From Deltaproteobacteria bacterium (GTDB lineage Bacteria > UBA10199 > SPLOWO2-01-44-7), in NCBI GenBank assembly GCA_023265595.1, contig JAHFSU010000003.1:6178-70177 (forward strand): DNA of 64,000 nucleotides, read 5' to 3'. Within the stretch, counting starts at the first letter, position 1. Every line of letters begins with the position of its first letter. Position numbers and translations under genes: made by a program. This document shows, one piece after another, positions 21,045 through 61,186 of the stretch. Below the pieces are notes generated by a model. The model saw nothing but the letters and a program-made list of their open reading frames with translations, did no database searches and had not been told where the DNA came from.

Positions 21045-21620
21045 TTATTGCCCCCTGAATCCGATCGCCACGAGATAAACTTCAGAAGATGTTTTTCGTG
21101 TGGCCTCCGGGATGAAAGTGACCAGTCGATCAAACGCCTTTTTCATCTCTTTTTTCAGTAATTCCATTTCTTCGCCCGGAAAAACCTTTATTACCAGATT
21201 TCCTTTTTTTTTCAAAAAGAGTTTTGCCAGTTCCCAAACCCGCACCGCCAATTCATAAGAACGATAGGTATCTCGAAAACGGATGCCGGAGAGGTCGGGA
21301 GAAAGATCGGACAAGATAGAGTCAAATTGTCGATCGAAAGTCAATGTGGGATCAAAAAGCTCCTTCTGGATGAAATCGACGTTTTGGGGCGGAGCGATTT
21401 TTAACGGAGAGCGATCGATGCCCGTAATGAAACCGTGAGGACCCACTTCTTGGGATAGAATTTGCAGCCAGCCGCCGGGGGCTGAACCCAAATCCAAAAT
21501 GGAGTTTCCCTTTTTCCAAATTTTGAATTTTTTCTCGATTTCCAAAATTTTATAGGCGGCACGGCTTGCCAATCCCTCTTTTTTGGCCTTTTTGTAGAAA
21601 TGATCTTTTCTTTCAAACAT
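21045..21620 (-). CDS. rlmE: 23S rRNA (uridine-2'-O)-methyltransferase RlmE/FtsJ.
   Basis: RSRAAYKL, DLGSAPGGWLQ and K-D-K-E motifs. The ORF-track start at 21701 is too far upstream; the Met at 21620 (MFERKDHFYKKAKKEG) fits the family N-terminus. Confidence 0.85.
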   Translation of the reverse strand: MFERKDHFYKKAKKEGLASRAAYKILEIEKKFKIWKKGNSILDLGSAPGGWLQILSQEVGPHGFITGIDRSPLKIAPPQNVDFIQKELFDPTLTFDRQFDSILSDLSPDLSGIRFRDTYRSYELAVRVWELAKLFLKKKGNLVIKVFPGEEMELLKKEMKKAFDRLVTFIPEATRKTSSEVYLVAIGFRGQ

Positions 21621-21621
21621 A

Positions 21622-21652
21622 AGCAACTTTTTTTGAAACCTGCCGATAATAG
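21622..21652 (+). promoter_or_regulatory. Copy a of the conserved promoter-like motif aaGCAACTTTTTTTGAAAcctGCCGATAAtag (CAAC-N14-GCCGATAA).
   Basis: Read directly. GCCGATAA matches the sigma-28/FliA-class -10 element. Divergent from the rlmE start. Confidence 0.5.
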
Positions 21653-21704
21653 TATTAGAGAGAAGAGGAGTCACTATTTCTTTGGGGTATAAAGTCGCCA
21701 AAAC

Positions 21705-22500: not shown

Positions 22501-22531
22501 CAATTTTTTTTTGGATTTTTTGAAAATAATT

Positions 22532-22562
22532 AGCAACTTTTTTTGAAAGTTGCCGATAACAG
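22532..22562 (+). promoter_or_regulatory. Copy b of the conserved promoter-like motif taGCAACTTTTTTTGAAAgttGCCGATAAcag.
   Basis: Read directly. Followed 30 nt later by a strong terminator. Confidence 0.5.
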
Positions 22563-22565
22563 TAG

Positions 22566-28044: not shown

Positions 28045-28100
28045 TGCGATTGTCATTGCGAGGCCGAGTTTATCGAGGCCAAAGCAATCCATATTTTAAG

Positions 28101-28126
28101 CAACTTTTTTGAAGCCCTGCCGATAA
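28101..28126 (+). promoter_or_regulatory. Copy c of the CAAC-N14-GCCGATAA motif (aaGCAACTTTTTTGAAGccctGCCGATAAcaa).
   Basis: Read directly. Immediately upstream of the HTH gene. Confidence 0.5.
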
Positions 28127-28133
28127 CAATGCC

Positions 28134-34210: not shown

Positions 34211-34238
34211 GAAATGACGCTTTGTGTCATTCGGCAGG

Positions 34239-34264
34239 CAACCTTCTTGAAGGAGTGCCGATAA
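34239..34264 (+). promoter_or_regulatory. Copy f of the CAAC-N14-GCCGATAA motif (gCAACcttcttgaaggagtGCCGATAAgaag).
   Basis: Read directly. It ends 8 nt before the ATG at 34273, which implies a leaderless or near-leaderless mRNA. Confidence 0.45.
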
Positions 34265-34272
34265 GAAGTCAG

Positions 34273-40703: not shown

Positions 40704-41984
40704 ATGCTCGGAGTCCTCGCAATGACAACCCTTCCGGCTTTTGCCAACACGCTTCCCCCCAATCTTGCGATTTTGGAAAAAGAGCCGGCCGATTTAAAAA
40801 TAATCGAAAAATTGGTTGACTATCGGTGGTTTGATCAAGCGTTAAAGGCTTTAATAAATTATCCGGATACGGATGAAAAGGCCCTCTTTTTAAAAGCCCG
40901 ATGTTGGATGGGGCTTAAAAGTTACAAAGAGGCCCTCGAATTATTTCACCAACTTGCAGAATCGTCTTCCTCTTTTGAAATGCGTCGCGAGGCCCTTTTG
41001 AAAGAGGCGATGATTTTTGTTCGACTCAAAAAATACGAGGCCGCGTTGGATATCTACAATCGTCTGCTTGAAGAAAATCGCGGGAAAAAAAGAGGGATCA
41101 GAGAAATTGCGAAGCGGGCTTTTAAAACGGCGTTGGAAGCGAAAAAATATGATGAAGGCCTGCTGTTTTTGGGACACTTCAGCGGAGATGAAGCCCGTTG
41201 GTGGCGCGGTTGGTGCCATTTTCGAAAAGAGGAATATGATGCCGCATTAACCTATTGGGATAAAATTTCCAAACGGAGTGATTTTTACCCGCAGACCCTT
41301 TTTTGGAAATCCCAAATTTTCAAAAAAATCAAAAATCCGGAGAAGAGTGATTCTTGTTTTCAGACACTTCTTCAGGAATATCCCTTCCATTATTATAGTT
41401 TTTTGGCTCTTTTTGAAAAAATTCCAAGGAAAAAGGATCGACTCGATCTGATTTCTACCCATTGGTCTGGTGACAGGGATAAATCGAAATGGATGGAGCG
41501 CTATCCACGAACATTTGAAATCGAAGTCAAAAAAGCAGCAAAAAAAAGAGACCTCGATTCCTATTTTGTTTTTGCCGTGATTTGGCAGGAATCCCATTTT
41601 CGCGAATGGGTGGTTTCTCCAAGTGGCGCGATCGGTTTAATGCAGCTGATGCCGCAAACGGCTTTGACATTGGCCCATGCGATTCAATTAAGACATTTTG
41701 ATCTTGTCCAAATTTTGAAACCGGAAATGAACATCAAGCTCGGTTCCCTTTACCTCTCTTTTTTGAAAAAACTTTTTTCCGGCCATCTTCCGCTGGCCGT
41801 TGCCGCCTATAATGCCGGGGAAGAAGCGGTTAGCCGGTGGTTGAGCCTTCGCAAAAAGGATTCTCTCCCGCTGATTATCGAAGAAATCCCTTACGACGAA
41901 ACCCAAAAATATACTAAAAAGGTGCTTTTGGCCCATTGGATTTACCATTGGCTCTACAGAGGGGACGTTCCACCCGTTTTTTGA
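40704..41984 (+). CDS. Lytic murein transglycosylase (SLT domain) with N-terminal TPR-like repeats.
   Basis: SLT catalytic motif (ES...GLMQLMP, AYNAG). Signal peptide from the Met at 40704. The ORF-track start at 40590 was rejected. Confidence 0.75.
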   Translation: MLGVLAMTTLPAFANTLPPNLAILEKEPADLKIIEKLVDYRWFDQALKALINYPDTDEKALFLKARCWMGLKSYKEALELFHQLAESSSSFEMRREALLKEAMIFVRLKKYEAALDIYNRLLEENRGKKRGIREIAKRAFKTALEAKKYDEGLLFLGHFSGDEARWWRGWCHFRKEEYDAALTYWDKISKRSDFYPQTLFWKSQIFKKIKNPEKSDSCFQTLLQEYPFHYYSFLALFEKIPRKKDRLDLISTHWSGDRDKSKWMERYPRTFEIEVKKAAKKRDLDSYFVFAVIWQESHFREWVVSPSGAIGLMQLMPQTALTLAHAIQLRHFDLVQILKPEMNIKLGSLYLSFLKKLFSGHLPLAVAAYNAGEEAVSRWLSLRKKDSLPLIIEEIPYDETQKYTKKVLLAHWIYHWLYRGDVPPVF

Positions 41985-42070
41985 CGCTTTTTGGCACCAC
42001 CGTCAAAAAAATAGGGGGACGTTCCACCAATTTTTTGACGCTTTTTGATGCCACCGTCAAAAAAATGACG
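41961..42070. repeat. Two tandem 53-bp direct repeats, each containing the palindrome TTTTTTGACG-N14-CGTCAAAAAA. Candidate enhancer/activator binding sites upstream of a sigma-54 promoter.
   Basis: Read directly. Repeat 1 overlaps the last 8 codons of the slt gene. Confidence 0.5.
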
Positions 42071-48077: not shown

Positions 48078-48148
48078 AAGGAGGGCGTTTCGCTTCTCTA
48101 TCAAACAGCTGGACAATTTGTCCACTCTGTTTTCACCTTGATTGGAAG

Positions 48149-48174
48149 CAACTTTTTTGAAAGATTGCCGATAA
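48149..48174 (+). promoter_or_regulatory. Copy d of the CAAC-N14-GCCGATAA motif (aaGCAACTTTTTTGAAAgattGCCGATAAcag).
   Basis: Read directly. 24 nt upstream of the ATG at 48199, with an AAGGGA ribosome-binding site in between. Confidence 0.5.
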
Positions 48175-48198
48175 CAGTTAAGAAGGGATGATAAAACT

Positions 48199-49662
48199 AT
48201 GCCACCCGTCGATGGGAATATTGCTTTGGGAATACAAGCAGTTGGGGTGTCTAATTTCACCCTCAGCACCAATCCAACAGCCACTTCCTTATTAACAGAT
48301 GCAATAAATTCCACTGCAGGGTTTCAAAATGTAACTTCTTCATTTGAAACTGTCCCCGATATTCATCAAGCCCAACCCCCTCCTGCTACAAGTTCGGGAT
48401 TGCGATTTTCTGCCACCCATCCCCTAACACAGAATGGGGATTTTTTGGATGAAGAGACTCCATCTCATTTTAACTCTCTGGTTCGCCGAATGGTTTTTGG
48501 GGCGCTCAGTTTTGCTTCGGAACTGGAAAATCTTGTTCTGTTTCTTATCGATCGTTCTCCTCTCACCGCTATCGGATTTTTTGGGCCTCGTTCCGAGAGG
48601 GGGATACCTTGCTCACGCAGAGGAGTTTTTTCTTATCTCGCACAACTCAATCTGTCGAAATACGATTTCAGCGGGAAAATGGTGTTGGATGTGGGAAGTG
48701 GCAGAAGCCGTTTTGCGCAGATCATTGATGTCACTTACAGAGATTCGGGTACGCGTGCCATTCCGGTGGATCTGCTTGTTCAGCCCAAATCGGCTATCGG
48801 AATGAAGGCAGATGCCGTTTCCCTGCCGTTTGGAAGGGGTATGTTTGGTTTAGTAACTAACAACTGGGTTCTTCAACATTTCCTTTTTACCGCAACCGGC
48901 GATTCTATGTTGGAAGAGATGCTCCGCGTCTGCAAGTCGGGAGGGGAAATCCGAGTTTCTTTTCAGAGAGATGAACCATTGGACAAACTGATAGCTTATC
49001 TAGAAAGTCATCCTGCCGTGGAAAGGGTTGTCCAACATTCCAGAGGCATGCTGACCAAATCTATTGAAATTCACCTTCGCAAAGAACCTCCTTCAAAAGA
49101 AAGGCTCGCGGCTTTTTATGAAGATTTGGAAAGAAATGGAATGATTTATGTCCCATGGAGATTAGATGTTTTGGCCCATCGCTCTTCAAGAGCAAGGGTG
49201 ATTGAATTAAGAAGGGGTGGGTTATCGGATCGGTTGGATTATATTGCCGATGTCAGGAGGTTTCTCAATCACGATCCCAGTGATCCTTTTGTTATCGATC
49301 CGGAATATCCAACCGTTTTGGCATCATGGTTTGCTGACTCCCGCGATCATTTTGAATTGAGGAAAAGTATTGTCAGTTTATTTATGGAGTGGGCAGCGTT
49401 GTATCCCCATTTTCAAGAGGCTTGGGATTTGCTGTCCGATTTGGAAAAAAATAGTCTGATGGAATATTGGCTGTTAACGCCTGTTTATAGAGAGTTGCTG
49501 AGGAGATCCCCTGAAAATTATTTTGAGATTTCCGGTGTCTATTCGCCAACCGTTACAGCACTTAGGGACAAGTTAAGTCAAGAGATCAAAACAGCAGCGG
49601 CAATTAGAGAGATAGAATTAGAAGCAAAAGAGCGTTTTGCCGATCCTATGTTTATACGCTAA
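48199..49662 (+). CDS. Hypothetical 487-aa protein with a class I SAM-dependent methyltransferase-like core.
   Basis: Motif I-like VLDVGSGRSRFA and a post-I acidic residue. The remainder is unrecognised. Confidence 0.45.
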   Translation: MPPVDGNIALGIQAVGVSNFTLSTNPTATSLLTDAINSTAGFQNVTSSFETVPDIHQAQPPPATSSGLRFSATHPLTQNGDFLDEETPSHFNSLVRRMVFGALSFASELENLVLFLIDRSPLTAIGFFGPRSERGIPCSRRGVFSYLAQLNLSKYDFSGKMVLDVGSGRSRFAQIIDVTYRDSGTRAIPVDLLVQPKSAIGMKADAVSLPFGRGMFGLVTNNWVLQHFLFTATGDSMLEEMLRVCKSGGEIRVSFQRDEPLDKLIAYLESHPAVERVVQHSRGMLTKSIEIHLRKEPPSKERLAAFYEDLERNGMIYVPWRLDVLAHRSSRARVIELRRGGLSDRLDYIADVRRFLNHDPSDPFVIDPEYPTVLASWFADSRDHFELRKSIVSLFMEWAALYPHFQEAWDLLSDLEKNSLMEYWLLTPVYRELLRRSPENYFEISGVYSPTVTALRDKLSQEIKTAAAIREIELEAKERFADPMFIR

Positions 49663-50822
49663 ACTCTCTCTTCCAAATCAAACAGCTTTTTGTGTTCCTG
49701 CAGGGCGAAGCGGTCGGTCATGCCGGCGATGTAGTCGCAGATATGTCGCTTGGTTTCTTTGCTTCCCCTGACCCGCGTGTAGAATTCTTCCGGCAAAATT
49801 CTTGGATTGGCGATATAGGCCTGAAAAAGATCGGTAATCGTCCGCTTTGCTTTTTCTGCCATGCGAACCACCCGCCAGTGGAGGTACATATTTTCATACA
49901 GAAATTTTTTGAGTTCCGCCGTCTTTTTTTGCATGGCAGGGTTTAAAGAGACGATTTTTTTCCCGTGAGTCCGCACATCTTCGAGCGTCTTTATTTTTTC
50001 CTCCGAGATATTTTTTAGGGTTTCGGTTTGCAAATCATCGACCAACTTGTGGATCAGACGGCTGATGGTGCGAAAGCGCTTCACTTTGTCGGGGGCGTTG
50101 GGAATCGATTTTTGGATGTCGGCAAAGGTTTCGTTCCAAAGTCGGACCTCTTTCAATGACTCAAAAGTGAGCATCCCATATTGAAGGCCGTCATCCAGAT
50201 CGTGATTCATGTAGGCGATCTCGTCGGCAAAGTTGACCGCTTGAGCCTCCAGTGTCGGAAAGCCCACCCTTTGAAAATCGGCATCTTCCAGAGGTTTGTC
50301 ATATTCCGTCTGGTGTTTCAAAATCCCTTCGAGGACTTCAAAAGATAAATTTAGGCCCGGAAAGTTGGGATAGCGCTCTTCGAGTTGCGTCACCACACGA
50401 TAACTCTGTTTGTTGTGCTCAAACCCGCCGACATCTTCCATGAGCGTGTGCATCGCCGCCTCTCCCGCATGGCCAAAGGGTGTGTGGCCCAAGTCATGTG
50501 CGAGGGCAATCGTTTGCGCCAAGTCTTCATTGAGCCTCAGCATTCGTGAAATGCCGCGCGAAATTTGGCTCACCTCCAGAGAATGTGTGAGGCGTGTCCG
50601 GTAATAATCGCCCTCGTGATTGATGAAGACTTGCGTTTTATATTCAAGCCGCCGAAAGGCGGTGGAATGGACGATGCGGTCGAGATCGCGCTGAAAACAG
50701 GGACGAAAGATACATTCTTCTTCTTTGTGTTTTCTGCCGAGGCTCGCCGAAGAGAGTTGGGCGTAGGGGGCCAAGAGTTCTTTCTCTTTTTCTTCATACG
50801 CCTCGCGGTGGAGCATGGGCAA
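49659..50822 (-). CDS. dgt: dGTP triphosphohydrolase-like HD-domain protein.
   Basis: HD-domain motifs (HSLEV, DLGHxPFGH) and typical Dgt N-terminus. Confidence 0.8.
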   Translation of the reverse strand: MPMLHREAYEEKEKELLAPYAQLSSASLGRKHKEEECIFRPCFQRDLDRIVHSTAFRRLEYKTQVFINHEGDYYRTRLTHSLEVSQISRGISRMLRLNEDLAQTIALAHDLGHTPFGHAGEAAMHTLMEDVGGFEHNKQSYRVVTQLEERYPNFPGLNLSFEVLEGILKHQTEYDKPLEDADFQRVGFPTLEAQAVNFADEIAYMNHDLDDGLQYGMLTFESLKEVRLWNETFADIQKSIPNAPDKVKRFRTISRLIHKLVDDLQTETLKNISEEKIKTLEDVRTHGKKIVSLNPAMQKKTAELKKFLYENMYLHWRVVRMAEKAKRTITDLFQAYIANPRILPEEFYTRVRGSKETKRHICDYIAGMTDRFALQEHKKLFDLEERV

Positions 50823-50852
50823 GGGCTACTACACCTTCTTATTAAGATCAAG

Positions 50853-50990
50853 CCCATGGGAATATAGGTAGTGGGTCAGTTTGTTGATGTCATCCCCGCG
50901 AAAGCGGGGATCCATGGATTCCTGCTGGAGTTTACCCCCGCGTGTTGTAAGCGGGGGCAGGAATGACAAACTGACCCACTATTGAAATAT
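50853..50990. repeat. Nested perfect-palindrome element: 16-bp outer arms (TAGTGGGTCAGTTTGT / ACAAACTGACCCACTA) enclosing CCCCGC-GAAA-GCGGGG, ATCCATGGAT, and TCCTGC[...CCCCCGC-N9-GCGGGGG]GCAGGA. Candidate MITE/REP-like or structured RNA element.
   Basis: Read directly. GC-rich stems in the dgt / 51064 divergent intergenic region. Confidence 0.45.
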
Positions 50991-51063
50991 AAAAGTTGAA
51001 AAAAATATGGTTGCTAGGGGGACTTTCCTTTTGATATGTCAGCCGAAGACCAAGGAGGTATTT

Positions 51064-51651
51064 ATGTTTGCGGCAACGCCTATTTTATTCATCGGGACAG
51101 TGGGAAACCAACTCTTGGCATCTCCGGACGGGCTTGAGGTCCTTTTATCTCAACCCGATTTTGATCCCATCAGTTCCATGAGAGAGGTCGATACCGTTGT
51201 TGCCCAAGTTTATCGGAAACTGGGAAAGGAAGGAGATAAGATCAAAGAGGCATTAAAGATAGTTTCACATTTTTCGCTAATTCCTGATGCCTCTGCATCC
51301 GACGCACGCACGGCCTTAGAGAGTTTAGCGTGTTCTTTAAGGAAGATAGATAAAACTAATTTTGAAAAAGCCGCCTCCATGGCCATGCAAACATGCCACA
51401 TGGCTTTTTTGTGGGCTTCTCTCGGCGTTGTCAGGCAAGAGGTGGCAGCCGTTCTTCGTGCTGGCGGAGGAGATCCCGCGGACGACTCTTCCTTGGAAGG
51501 AATCGTGCGGCGCGCAAAAGCCCATCTAGAAAGAGAAGTCATCGAGCGTATTTTGTCAGAAACCGGCGGGAATGTTACGCATGCTGCCCGAAGGCTGGGC
51601 CTTAGCCGACGTGGGTTCCAGGCAAAAATGAAAGAATTTGGATTGCGTTAA
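51064..51651 (+). CDS. Small protein with a C-terminal Fis/NtrC-type helix-turn-helix (HTH_8) but no AAA+ domain.
   Basis: C-terminal ...ERILSETGGNVTHAARRLGLSRRGFQAKMKEFGL matches NtrC-family DNA-binding helices. AGGAGG ribosome-binding site before the ATG at 51064. Confidence 0.55.
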   Translation: MFAATPILFIGTVGNQLLASPDGLEVLLSQPDFDPISSMREVDTVVAQVYRKLGKEGDKIKEALKIVSHFSLIPDASASDARTALESLACSLRKIDKTNFEKAASMAMQTCHMAFLWASLGVVRQEVAAVLRAGGGDPADDSSLEGIVRRAKAHLEREVIERILSETGGNVTHAARRLGLSRRGFQAKMKEFGLR

Positions 51652-52214
51652 TCCACCGGTCTCACTTTCATTGTCGCCTGTTTTATTTCGGCGAGTTCTT
51701 TTGTAAACCGTTTCATGACCTCTTCCCCCAGTTTTTTCGGTTCCATCTTATAATCTTGCAACCCCTTTGTCAGAACCGGCGTGTTTTTTCTGGAGATGTT
51801 GATGCCGGTGTGTATCAGACACGAAATGGGAGAAGAGGTGGCAATCGAGACCGAAAGTTTGCAATCGCCATCATAGAGATCATCGCCGTCGCGAATGATT
51901 TTGAAGCATTGCGGAAATTGCAGCAAGGTTTCGTGGAGGATGGCAATCAACATCCTTTGGCGCAAAACCATTTTTTCGAGATCCTTATCAAAAATTTCAC
52001 AGATAAAATGGAGCATCGACTCGCTAAAGATCGGCGCATTGCGGGCGACATCTTCCAGATCGACCATATGTTCGATCGGCACGTCGGCAGGGCCGATAAA
52101 CCCAACGATGGCATCCCCTTTAAGAGCGCTAACTTCTTGAATCCACTCGGATTTTAATTGAGTCCCGTCATAGGTTGTGGTGGCTGAAAGCCAACCCATT
52201 TTCAAAACCGACAT
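51648..52214 (-). CDS. Conserved hypothetical protein.
   Basis: 188-aa ORF. The start is uncertain because it overlaps the divergent ORF. Confidence 0.35.
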   Translation of the reverse strand: MSVLKMGWLSATTTYDGTQLKSEWIQEVSALKGDAIVGFIGPADVPIEHMVDLEDVARNAPIFSESMLHFICEIFDKDLEKMVLRQRMLIAILHETLLQFPQCFKIIRDGDDLYDGDCKLSVSIATSSPISCLIHTGINISRKNTPVLTKGLQDYKMEPKKLGEEVMKRFTKELAEIKQATMKVRPVD

Positions 52215-52231
52215 ATGTTAACAGGTACCAT

Positions 52232-53185
52232 ATGCAAGTTTTGAGGCAACTTTTTTCTGGTTTTGACGAACACAATTCTGAAAGGCATAAACAACGCATG
52301 ACACCCCTTGTTAGTTTGACCTCATTGGATATCTATTCGGGCGCCCTTTTGGTGGGGCCTTCGGGTCTTATGGAGGCCTGCCGCAATTTAGGTCCGATCG
52401 GATACGACGACCACCGGATGCTGGTTCGCCTTCTTCCGGCCCTTTCGGAGGCCCTTTCCGATGAAGGAATCCCCACCTCTGCATGGTCAATTCCCGTCAG
52501 GGAATATGTCCGCACAAAAGAACTTGGAAAAGAATCCCAAGCAAAACTTCGGCAAATTGCCTCCGGTTTAAGGGGTATCTCGCTCGAAGCGGAATCGAGC
52601 TATCAAAGGGCCGTGGATCGGGCGACGGCTTTTTTAATGAAGAAAAAAGAAGCTCTTTTTTTTCCTGTGGAAAAAATGGAAGCACTGCAAAATATCGTTT
52701 ATGCCAATCCCGTTGGCCATGCCTTAGCCGCATGGGTGGACCGTTTTTTTGGAGATTATCGCGATGCGGCCGAAGATTTTGGACAGATGGCCGATGGTTA
52801 CCGGATTCGCGGGGATGTGGTGCGGGCGAGACGATTTTACTTTTTAGAAGCGGAAAATTATTTCCGCAGCGCCATGAAATTTTCCGATCGTTCCCAAAAA
52901 GGGGAGCTCGTCGTTGCCGCGCTACATTTTAAAAAATCAGCCTTGGCCTATTTGGCCGCCGATAACGAATTGCGGGCGAAAGAGGCGGGTCAAAGAAAAA
53001 GAGAGATGGAAGAAAAGGCGCTGGAGGCGTCGGAAGAGGGCCCTTCATCTCCCCGGTTTCTGGATCGGCTCTTCAGAGGCCTGTCGGCTTTTTTCGAATA
53101 TGCAGAACCGGTGGTGGGGCGTGACGCCGGCAGAACGGTGGGGGACGGAAAAAGTGGGCGTCATCTGCGACTCGTCAAAAAATAG
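52232..53185 (+). CDS. Hypothetical protein.
   Basis: ORF of about 318 aa from the ATG at 52232. No recognised motifs. Confidence 0.35.
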   Translation: MQVLRQLFSGFDEHNSERHKQRMTPLVSLTSLDIYSGALLVGPSGLMEACRNLGPIGYDDHRMLVRLLPALSEALSDEGIPTSAWSIPVREYVRTKELGKESQAKLRQIASGLRGISLEAESSYQRAVDRATAFLMKKKEALFFPVEKMEALQNIVYANPVGHALAAWVDRFFGDYRDAAEDFGQMADGYRIRGDVVRARRFYFLEAENYFRSAMKFSDRSQKGELVVAALHFKKSALAYLAADNELRAKEAGQRKREMEEKALEASEEGPSSPRFLDRLFRGLSAFFEYAEPVVGRDAGRTVGDGKSGRHLRLVKK

Positions 53186-60172: not shown

Positions 60173-61186
60173 TTATAAGAGCAGCATGCAATCGCCGTAA
60201 CTAAACAGCCGATAGCGCTCCGATATCGCCTCTTGATACGATTGCAAGAGAAATTCTCGCCCTGCAAAGGCCGCAACCATTAGGATCAGCGTGGAACCGG
60301 GCTGATGAAAGTTGGTCAGGATCCCATCCACCATTTTGAAGGGAGTACCCGGGTATATATAATGATAAGTGACCGGTTGGCTCCAATCGCTCTCGAGTGC
60401 GCGGACAACGGTTGTCCCGATTGCAATCACCCGGCCGCCGTTTTGTTTTGTCCGGGCGATTTTTTCTTTTGTTTCATCGGGGATGTGAAAACGTTCGCCG
60501 TGCATTTTGTGTTTTTGGATATCGGCTTCACGGATCGGCAAAAAAGTGTCGCGCGAGACATGCAGCGTGATTGTTGCTGTCTCAATCCCTTTGTTTTTGA
60601 TGGCTTCGAGCATTTTTTGGCTGAAGTGAAAGCTGGCGGTGGGAGCGGCGGCGGAACCTTTGTGGCGCGCAAAGATCGACTGATAGCGAACGCGGTCTTC
60701 TTTTGTGTAGTCGGCCGCTGATTTGCGCCGGATATAAGGAGGAAGCGGCGGCAGACCGATTTTTTCAATCTCTTCTTCAAAATTTTTGGATTCAAATTGA
60801 ATCCGCAAAACATCTTCTCTATTTTGGATGATGGTCCCTTTTAAATTTTCTGAAAAAATAAGTTGCAGCCCTTCGCCCAATTTTTTGAGCGGCTTGCCGA
60901 GACATTTCCATGTTTCGTCAGGGCCGCATTTTTCAAGAAGCAGAATCTCCATTTTTCCGGAAAGAAGGCGAGCCGGAAAAACTTTGGTATCATTGAAGAC
61001 CAAAAGGTCTCCTTTTTGCAAATAAGCCGGCAAATTTTTGACCCACTCATTGCATATGGTACCTGTTAACATATGCTCGTCTGTTGGGCGCTGGAGGACC
61101 ATCATCCGGCTTGAATCCCTTTTCGGCAGCGGGTGCTGGGCGATGAGCTCTTGCGGATAATCGTATTGGAAAAGGCTCAAATCCAT
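60173..61186 (-). CDS. queA: S-adenosylmethionine:tRNA ribosyltransferase-isomerase.
   Basis: QueA N-terminus (FxYxxPxELIAQxP) and C-terminal motifs. The ORF-track start at 61381 is rejected; the Met at 61186 matches family length. Confidence 0.85.
   Translation of the reverse strand: MDLSLFQYDYPQELIAQHPLPKRDSSRMMVLQRPTDEHMLTGTICNEWVKNLPAYLQKGDLLVFNDTKVFPARLLSGKMEILLLEKCGPDETWKCLGKPLKKLGEGLQLIFSENLKGTIIQNREDVLRIQFESKNFEEEIEKIGLPPLPPYIRRKSAADYTKEDRVRYQSIFARHKGSAAAPTASFHFSQKMLEAIKNKGIETATITLHVSRDTFLPIREADIQKHKMHGERFHIPDETKEKIARTKQNGGRVIAIGTTVVRALESDWSQPVTYHYIYPGTPFKMVDGILTNFHQPGSTLILMVAAFAGREFLLQSYQEAISERYRLFSYGDCMLLL

Follow-up and report, generated by a model that had tools for sequence, protein, structure and literature searches.

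The 64-kb stretch of DNA analysed here (the window) contains a nested palindrome between dgt, which encodes a dGTP triphosphohydrolase, and a divergent gene for a protein with a C-terminal Fis-type HTH domain (Table 1). An initial annotation had placed this palindrome at 50853-50990; the two flanking genes are as it stated, and all the features that it described are present in the sequence: (i) a pair of perfect 16-nt arms, (ii) a hairpin closed by a GAAA loop, (iii) a palindrome of ten bases made by the junction of two interior modules, and (iv) a composite hairpin that encloses a second one. Both arms exist, although the coordinates given for the left one (50868-50883) were off by one position. 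The window holds 37 inverted-repeat pairs within 300 nt, and the other perfect ones among the 25 longest have arms of 13 nt only.

The multi-branch topology proposed in the initial annotation was recovered in the predicted folds of both strands. For a 141-nt stretch spanning the palindrome, the predicted free energies were -62.7 kcal/mol for the minus strand (z = -9.0) and -68.6 kcal/mol for the plus strand (z = -7.9), and none of 200 shuffles was as stable. When the terminal repeats were removed, the interior alone still gave a z of -3.9.

Table 1. Features of the palindromic element, its flanks and other repeats, in positions of the window
Feature	Position	Strand	Remarks
dgt (dGTP triphosphohydrolase)	49659-50816	-	Pfam HD + HD_assoc; ATG 50 nt from the end of the MITE
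Ancestral junction motif GTAGTAGCC	50823-50834		retained just upstream of dgt
Lineage-specific block, ~816 bp	50835-51650		between DUF366 and dgt; carries the Fis-HTH gene (+) and the MITE
Left target-site duplication copy GGAATATA	50859-50866		read directly
MITE, whole element	50867-50983		117 bp, non-coding
Left terminal inverted repeat GGTAGTGGGTCAGTTTGT	50867-50884		first 17 nt identical to family consensus GGTAGTGGGTCAGTTTG
Left 16-nt arm TAGTGGGTCAGTTTGT	50869-50884		perfect match to right arm
Hairpin-rich interior	50885-50965		two inverted modules
Interior module 1, TGTCAT-CCCCGC-GAAA-GCGGGG-ATCC	hairpin 50892-50911		hairpin ATCCCCGC-GAAA-GCGGGGAT, read directly
Palindrome ATCCATGGAT	50910-50919		made by the junction of interior modules 1 and 2
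Interior module 2, GGATTCCTGC[...]GCAGGAATGACA	hairpin 50918-50964		composite hairpin ATTCCTGC...GCAGGAAT; encloses nested CCCCCGC/GCGGGGG (50935-50957)
Right terminal inverted repeat ACAAACTGACCCACTATT	50966-50983		outermost bases TT, consensus CC
Right 16-nt arm ACAAACTGACCCACTA	50966-50981		reverse complement of left arm
Right target-site duplication copy GAAATATA	50984-50991		read directly; 7/8 match to left copy
195-aa protein, C-terminal Fis-type HTH_8 (Pfam)	51064-51651	+	stop codon overlaps the opposite-strand DUF366 stop, within TTAA
~37-nt motif AGCAACTTTTTTGAAAnnnTGCCGATAACAGT, six copies	21617-21653, 22527-22563, 28094-28130, 34232-34268, 48142-48178, 52240-52276	+	
Tandem 54-bp repeat	41961-42066		90% identical
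52-nt inverted repeat	52212-52263 and 61024-61075		77% complementary, 8.8 kb apart

Terminal repeats, target duplication and copies in other genomes

The outer arms belong to terminal inverted repeats of 18 nt (GGTAGTGGGTCAGTTTGT ... ACAAACTGACCCACTAtt), which pair at 16 of their 18 positions, the inner 16 perfectly. Outside them, the initial annotation had noted a weak extension of the arms by AATATAGG. The match between the flanks is real, but it consists of the GG of the terminal repeat plus an 8-bp target-site duplication, which had gone unrecognised. The element thus delimited is short and non-coding, the sole ORF across it being a 46-aa TTG frame.

We scanned the GTDB representatives, one genome per species, for the 11-nt arm cores GTGGGTCAGTT and AACTGACCCAC lying 72-102 nt apart. 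At least 119 genome loci were found, versus about two expected by chance in 596 Gb according to our own calculation; one or two of the listed loci look like chance matches (L034 and, within a coding region of a Faecousia MAG, L047). MAGs of Acidobacteriota contribute most of the listed loci; others belong to MAGs of Planctomycetota, Verrucomicrobiota (Opitutaceae, Pedosphaera), Chloroflexota, Omnitrophota, Binatia and Acetobacteraceae. Among the matches listed several genomes carry multiple loci, for example four in MAG JASHQE01 and three in JAEUHC01. The copy-number check proposed in the initial annotation hence confirmed a repeat family with copies in other genomes, the 64-kb window itself holding a single one.

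Among the copies listed, which are 99-132 bp long, the consensus ends GGTAGTGGGTCAGTTTG ... CAAACTGACCCACTACC extend past the searched cores: a GGTA tip is present in 67 of 121 copies and a TACC tip in 69, both lying outside the cores used in the scan. The 8-bp flanks immediately outside the GG/CC tips are identical in 43 of the 121 listed copies (for example, gtcatttg in L008 and tggaagtc in L036) and differ by at most one mismatch in 66, compared with 0.7% in a control in which left and right flanks from different copies were paired (shuffled partners). The exact direct repeats measure 8 bp in 43 listed copies, 9 bp in five and 6 bp in one, and the duplicated target sites display a loosely symmetric preference, S-A-A-N-N-T/Y-Y-S. 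The window element has the same geometry, GGAATATA / GGTAGTGGG ... CCCACTATT / GAAATATA.

We also considered a Correia-like element with a TA duplication and discarded it, as the aligned copies show that the TA is part of the conserved GGTA...TACC and that the 8-bp repeat lies outside. Separately, variant-terminus MITEs with the ends GGGTACTGGGGTCATTTG, GGTAGTGGTGCAGTTT and GGTAGTGTTTCAGTTTG were observed (L023, 507-760; L070, 3657-3900; L010, 4963), in which a change on one arm has its counterpart on the other; given their existence, the family is broader than exact-match scans show. In the searchable literature, on topics that included the IS1 family and Acidobacteria MITEs and with ISfinder not covered, we found no description of this MITE family, and literature matches to the arm sequences were unrelated primers only.

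Transposase-bearing relatives

A second scan, of IMG/VR contigs with the query GTAGTGGGTCAGTTTG, returned at least 120 loci. Among the matches listed, the terminus is mostly solitary or forms inverted pairs with spacings of 0.26-4.8 kb, and an ORF of ~282 aa is present in 36 of the 120 listed loci, always inside the termini or beside a solo terminus (for example, L135:3981-4826 and L163:3689-4546). The 3' end of this ORF often lies within tens of bases of one terminus. Identical ends bound elements of 1.9-4.8 kb that encode a transposase together with passenger genes. The ~282-aa protein carries an N-terminal HTH and matches the Pfam profile PF03400 (DDE_Tnp_IS1) with 30.2 and 34.8 bits, above the cut-off of 24.1; in NCBIfam its best family is IS1, but the 70 and 60 bits obtained there do not reach the curated cut-off of 100. 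Since it matches IS1 profiles but stays under the NCBIfam cut-off, the transposase is, to judge from these profile scores, a distant member of the IS1 family. IS1595, considered as a potential parent family, was rejected on a score of 28 bits versus 70 for IS1.

Perfect 8-bp duplications flank the transposase-bearing elements at L133, L140, L146, L165, L167, L185, L208 and L217, and imperfect ones those at L218 (one mismatch) and L223 (three mismatches). Shorter elements of 260-1140 bp, either non-coding or with cargo only, also have 8-bp duplications. In plasmids of cultured bacteria, tblastn detected genes 56-60% identical to the transposase, to which PGAP gives the name 'IS1 family transposase'. 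Three of them lie in complete elements with perfect duplications: (i) a 3370-bp element in Mesorhizobium loti 582 p_1, with the terminus GGTAGTGGGTCAGTTTGAAAT and the duplication cgctggtg, (ii) a 2634-bp element in an Acidiphilium multivorum plasmid, with the terminus GGTAGTGTCTCAGTTTG and the duplication aagccgag, and (iii) a 4224-bp element in a Hoeflea sp. plasmid, again with GGTAGTGTCTCAGTTTG and with the duplication gatgattg. The IS1-like transposase was found neither in the 64-kb window nor in the 119 listed genome MITE loci, as expected for non-autonomous copies.

In ISfinder, the ends of IS1-family elements are described as GGnnnTG, and direct repeats of 8-9 bp are a hallmark of the family; the right end of IS1 is GGTAATGACTCC. 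The left end of E. coli IS1A, which we checked (GGTGATGCTGCC... / GGTGATGCTGCCAACTT), begins with GGTGATG and the ends of the parent elements with GGTAGTG, so that the pattern GGT..TG is common to both. The parent elements accordingly share with the IS1 family a DDE transposase profile match, ends of the GGnnnTG type mentioned above, duplications of 8 and occasionally 9 bp and, in many cases, passenger genes. They differ from it in that a single ORF of ~282 aa encodes the transposase, which has an N-terminal HTH and is only distantly related to E. coli InsAB', and in that their termini, GGTAGTGGGTCAGTTTGAAAT, are distinct and very strongly conserved. The window element departs further from the IS1 family, as it is only 117 bp long and has no transposase.

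As summarised in PMC7986276, insertion sequences with passenger genes are a recognised category, 'tIS', within the IS1/IS1595 superfamily (Siguier et al. 2009). Two passengers recur in the elements analysed here, a protein of ~380 aa that is annotated as XRE/HTH-domain on plasmids and one of 340-420 aa with a faint match to a proteasome subunit. The other passengers are small unknown ORFs, and many of the IS1-type parents lie on IMG/VR 'viral' contigs (passenger-gene loci: L135, 2191-3836; L163, 2354-3493 and 4452-5468; L140, 2630-3901; L243-L245). It is possible that these passengers represent defence or addiction cargo.

The dgt locus in related genomes and the origin of the palindrome

The position of the element, 50-166 nt upstream of the dgt ATG, and its very stable multi-branch fold on both strands, including a GNRA loop, are what would be expected of a cis-regulatory structured RNA. 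The initial annotation had raised this for dgt, and a riboswitch-like leader for the divergent Fis-HTH gene can be imagined in the same way. We compared the locus with its relatives. A 100%-identical record of the dgt protein exists, as do many orthologues, and in four close ones (80-89% identity) the upstream gene abuts dgt, the two either overlapping or being no more than 27 bp apart, and no MITE is present. In L121 (89% identical) 12 bp separate the upstream ORF from dgt; on the contigs of P0003 (86%) and P0004 (83%) a DUF366 gene is followed by dgt after 27 and 26 bp, respectively; and in L122 (80%) DUF366 overlaps dgt. In a further relative, L001 (81%), a 428-bp gap holds two nested palindromes, both different from the one in the window.

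Beyond this locus, neither dgt nor the Fis-HTH protein was found at any of the ~240 other listed terminus-carrying loci. Rfam yielded no match at the gathering threshold other than tRNAs in the window and 18 other loci, and for the element itself, at E <= 10, only sub-threshold matches that look like chance. In addition, the target duplication and the transposase-bearing relatives account for the element without an RNA role. The absence of the MITE at the orthologous dgt genes examined, the lack of dgt near the other listed copies and the Rfam results leave the RNA-leader reading unsupported, and we give it next to no probability.

Conservation of the junction upstream of dgt helps to place the insertion. 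The ancestral junction motif survives in the window and in the relatives DUF366 lies directly before dgt, which indicates that the ~816 bp between them are a lineage-specific insertion comprising both the Fis-HTH gene and the MITE. When compared with 5.8 billion clusters, the Fis-HTH protein matched only itself and, weakly, the C-terminus of one NtrC-type protein. Because the relatives lack the whole 816-bp block and the adjacent Fis-HTH gene is an orphan, a precise empty site for the MITE was not found among them.

The two palindromes in the DUF366-dgt gap of L001 (9581-9730 and 9781-9952) have arms of 24-29 nt. The second has a further copy at a contig end (17708-17876), with compensatory changes in the arms (GTGGTGGCG/CGCCACCAC versus GTGTTGGCT/AGCCAACAC). 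They look like further MITE-like families, and the DUF366-dgt gap looks like an insertion hotspot.

We conclude that the palindrome in the window is very probably a 117-bp non-autonomous miniature inverted-repeat element (MITE), and that its family would depend for movement on a distant DDE transposase of the IS1 family acting in trans. It is short and non-coding, it has terminal inverted repeats and a target-site duplication of fixed length, and its termini are common to transposase-encoding elements. The case is carried by these repeats and this duplication, by the family of copies, by the transposase-bearing parents and by the absence of the element from orthologous sites. The DNA-level, MITE-like element that the initial annotation preferred over an RNA is borne out by the family copies, the target duplications and the transposase-bearing parents. 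In the mechanism that we propose, the transposase would recognise the terminal repeats of ~17-21 bp (GGTAGTGGGTCAGTTTG...) and insert the element at a staggered cut, whose repair would generate the 8-bp target duplication, here GGAATATA/GAAATATA. The window copy would have landed in intergenic DNA between dgt and the orphan Fis-HTH gene, and its inner hairpins would be normal cargo of the MITE family rather than a dgt-specific structure.

The right tip of the window copy and its duplication have accumulated three G:C-to-A:T changes. With CC replaced by TT at the tip and one mismatch in the duplication, the copy looks old and is probably immobile, the degenerate tip suggesting that the transposase would no longer cut it. 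In contrast, all 39 stem pairs are intact, whereas mismatches affect three of the 12 pairs in the tips and the duplication (Fisher p ~0.01, own calculation), which hints that pairing may be under some constraint, unlike in a purely decaying fossil.

This contrast is among the observations that could speak for an exapted MITE, one whose sequence would have come to provide promoter parts, an insulator or RNA-stabilising hairpins for dgt or the Fis-HTH gene after the 816-bp insertion split the DUF366 operon. Indeed, dgt is separated from its ancestral upstream operon context, the interior hairpins of the family are kept through compensatory changes, and a weak sigma-70-like sequence facing the Fis-HTH gene (TTGAAA-18-TATGGT, 9/12) starts at 50982, at the junction of MITE and duplication. 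However, such a promoter match is no better than those in shuffled sequences (one found versus 0.7 expected) and none faces dgt; a consensus scan found no terminator-like tail after the hairpins in either direction; and the family insertion sites at the listed loci have no neighbour gene in common. On balance, we regard exaptation as improbable, and infer that the window copy is a neutral relic, with no host function indicated.

The MITE reading has consequences for annotation. The window element is best recorded as a repeat or mobile element, since it would be a transposon relic and would add no new regulator to dGTP metabolism; its identity is an ordinary one, a MITE derived from transposons distantly placed in the IS1 family. 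Such MITEs, like their IS1-type parents with passenger genes, are very widespread in soil and freshwater phyla and are not flagged by current RNA and repeat libraries, and scans will keep bringing them up as 'structured RNA candidates'. A simple search key for the family is offered by the termini GGTAGTGGGTCAGTTTG.

Hairpin-rich interiors, known short elements and other repeats of the window

Among the copies listed, the ends are near-invariant and the interiors wholly different between lineages. Clustering sorted the interiors of the 121 listed copies into 44 unrelated types; the largest cluster (n = 26) comes entirely from Acidobacteriaceae. Without their terminal repeats, the listed interiors have a median fold z of -3.8, and 74% of them are below -2. 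In the largest cluster, 96% of the cells in three stems are paired versus 25-41% with slid partners, and in the first interior hairpin six of the eight pairs have changed on both sides and pairing stands at 98.5%.

No interior closely related to that of the window element was seen. Among the listed copies, L036, from an Omnitrophota MAG, comes nearest; it has a frame in common with the window element (TGTCATCCCCG...CGGGGATCC...GGATTCCYGC...GCRGGAATGACA), and each of its two hairpins differs from the counterpart there by compensatory changes (CCCCGA/TCGGGG and ATTCCCGC/GCGGGAAT). A metagenome scan for the arm plus TGTCATCCCCG gave one locus, L246, with its own flanking duplication and a different interior.

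Hairpin formation seems, from these comparisons, to be maintained whatever the sequence, and it is possible that extruded hairpins might serve the transposase by drawing the termini of a ~100-bp element close to each other. A more far-reaching reading would place the window copy in a superfamily of IS1-derived MITEs that spans phyla and is as yet undescribed, with only the ~17-nt ends fixed and almost any strongly hairpin-forming interior accepted; we consider this rather unlikely. If it were true, hairpin or cruciform formation would itself be selected, for end pairing or as an exapted RNA or DNA structure, and the structure in the window could help to express dgt after the operon was broken. 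In any event, hairpin-rich interiors with compensatory changes pose a small mechanistic question on how very short elements are mobilised.

The hairpins also bring to mind REP/REPIN elements, for whose movement a Y1 transposase of the RAYT/IS200-like kind is needed, or recombination sites, integron attC among them; a REP-like element and a recombination site had both been listed in the initial annotation. The interior of the window element is a head-to-head doublet of GTCATYCC...GGRATCC hairpins, similar to REP doublets; GC-rich hairpin doublets are found in other interiors of the family, and those of other copies resemble lineage-typical REP hairpins. Elements of this kind, however, do not generate the 8-bp target duplications seen in this copy and across its family, and REPINs, tied to RAYT, lack such terminal repeats, whereas the window family has DDE-type ends. 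Moreover, the unit conserved across phyla is the outer terminal repeat, common to DDE (IS1-type) elements, and not the hairpins, and a crude regex scan of the loci examined did not find the hairpins of the largest interior type outside MITE copies. The duplications and the transposase-bearing parents are at odds with a REP-like element or a recombination site, a reading that we deem extremely improbable.

As a MITE, the window element has closer counterparts in Correia/NEMIS elements of Neisseria, ERIC and MITEAba12 of Acinetobacter (PMC6382973). These are also non-coding, intergenic sequences of ~100-150 bp with terminal inverted repeats and a target duplication, able to form long hairpins. 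They occur in many copies per genome, as members of the window family do at several loci of some other genomes, and depend on an IS transposase acting in trans, as proposed here. Correia elements, however, duplicate TA and are restricted to Neisseria, whereas in the window family the duplication is 8 bp long and the ends are of IS1 type. In contrast to these elements, the family has ends that are near-invariant across at least six phyla and interiors unrelated between lineages.

Other repeats were observed in the window (Table 1). The ~37-nt motif occurs six times on the plus strand and in at least two copies ends ~20 nt before a start codon, as in the copy ending at 48178, which precedes an ATG at 48199. 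GCCGATAA is the sigma-28 (FliA) -10 consensus, and such promoters have been reported for Bdellovibrio-like 'Deltaproteobacteria'; the motif may be a lineage-typical promoter. The 52-nt inverted repeat holds the palindrome CATATGTTAACAGGTACCATATG beside this promoter-like motif, and may represent either an operator common to two promoters or the two ends of some larger unit. Finally, the tandem 54-bp repeat contains GGGGACGTTCCACC and the inverted repeats TTTTTTGACG...CGTCAAAAAAA.
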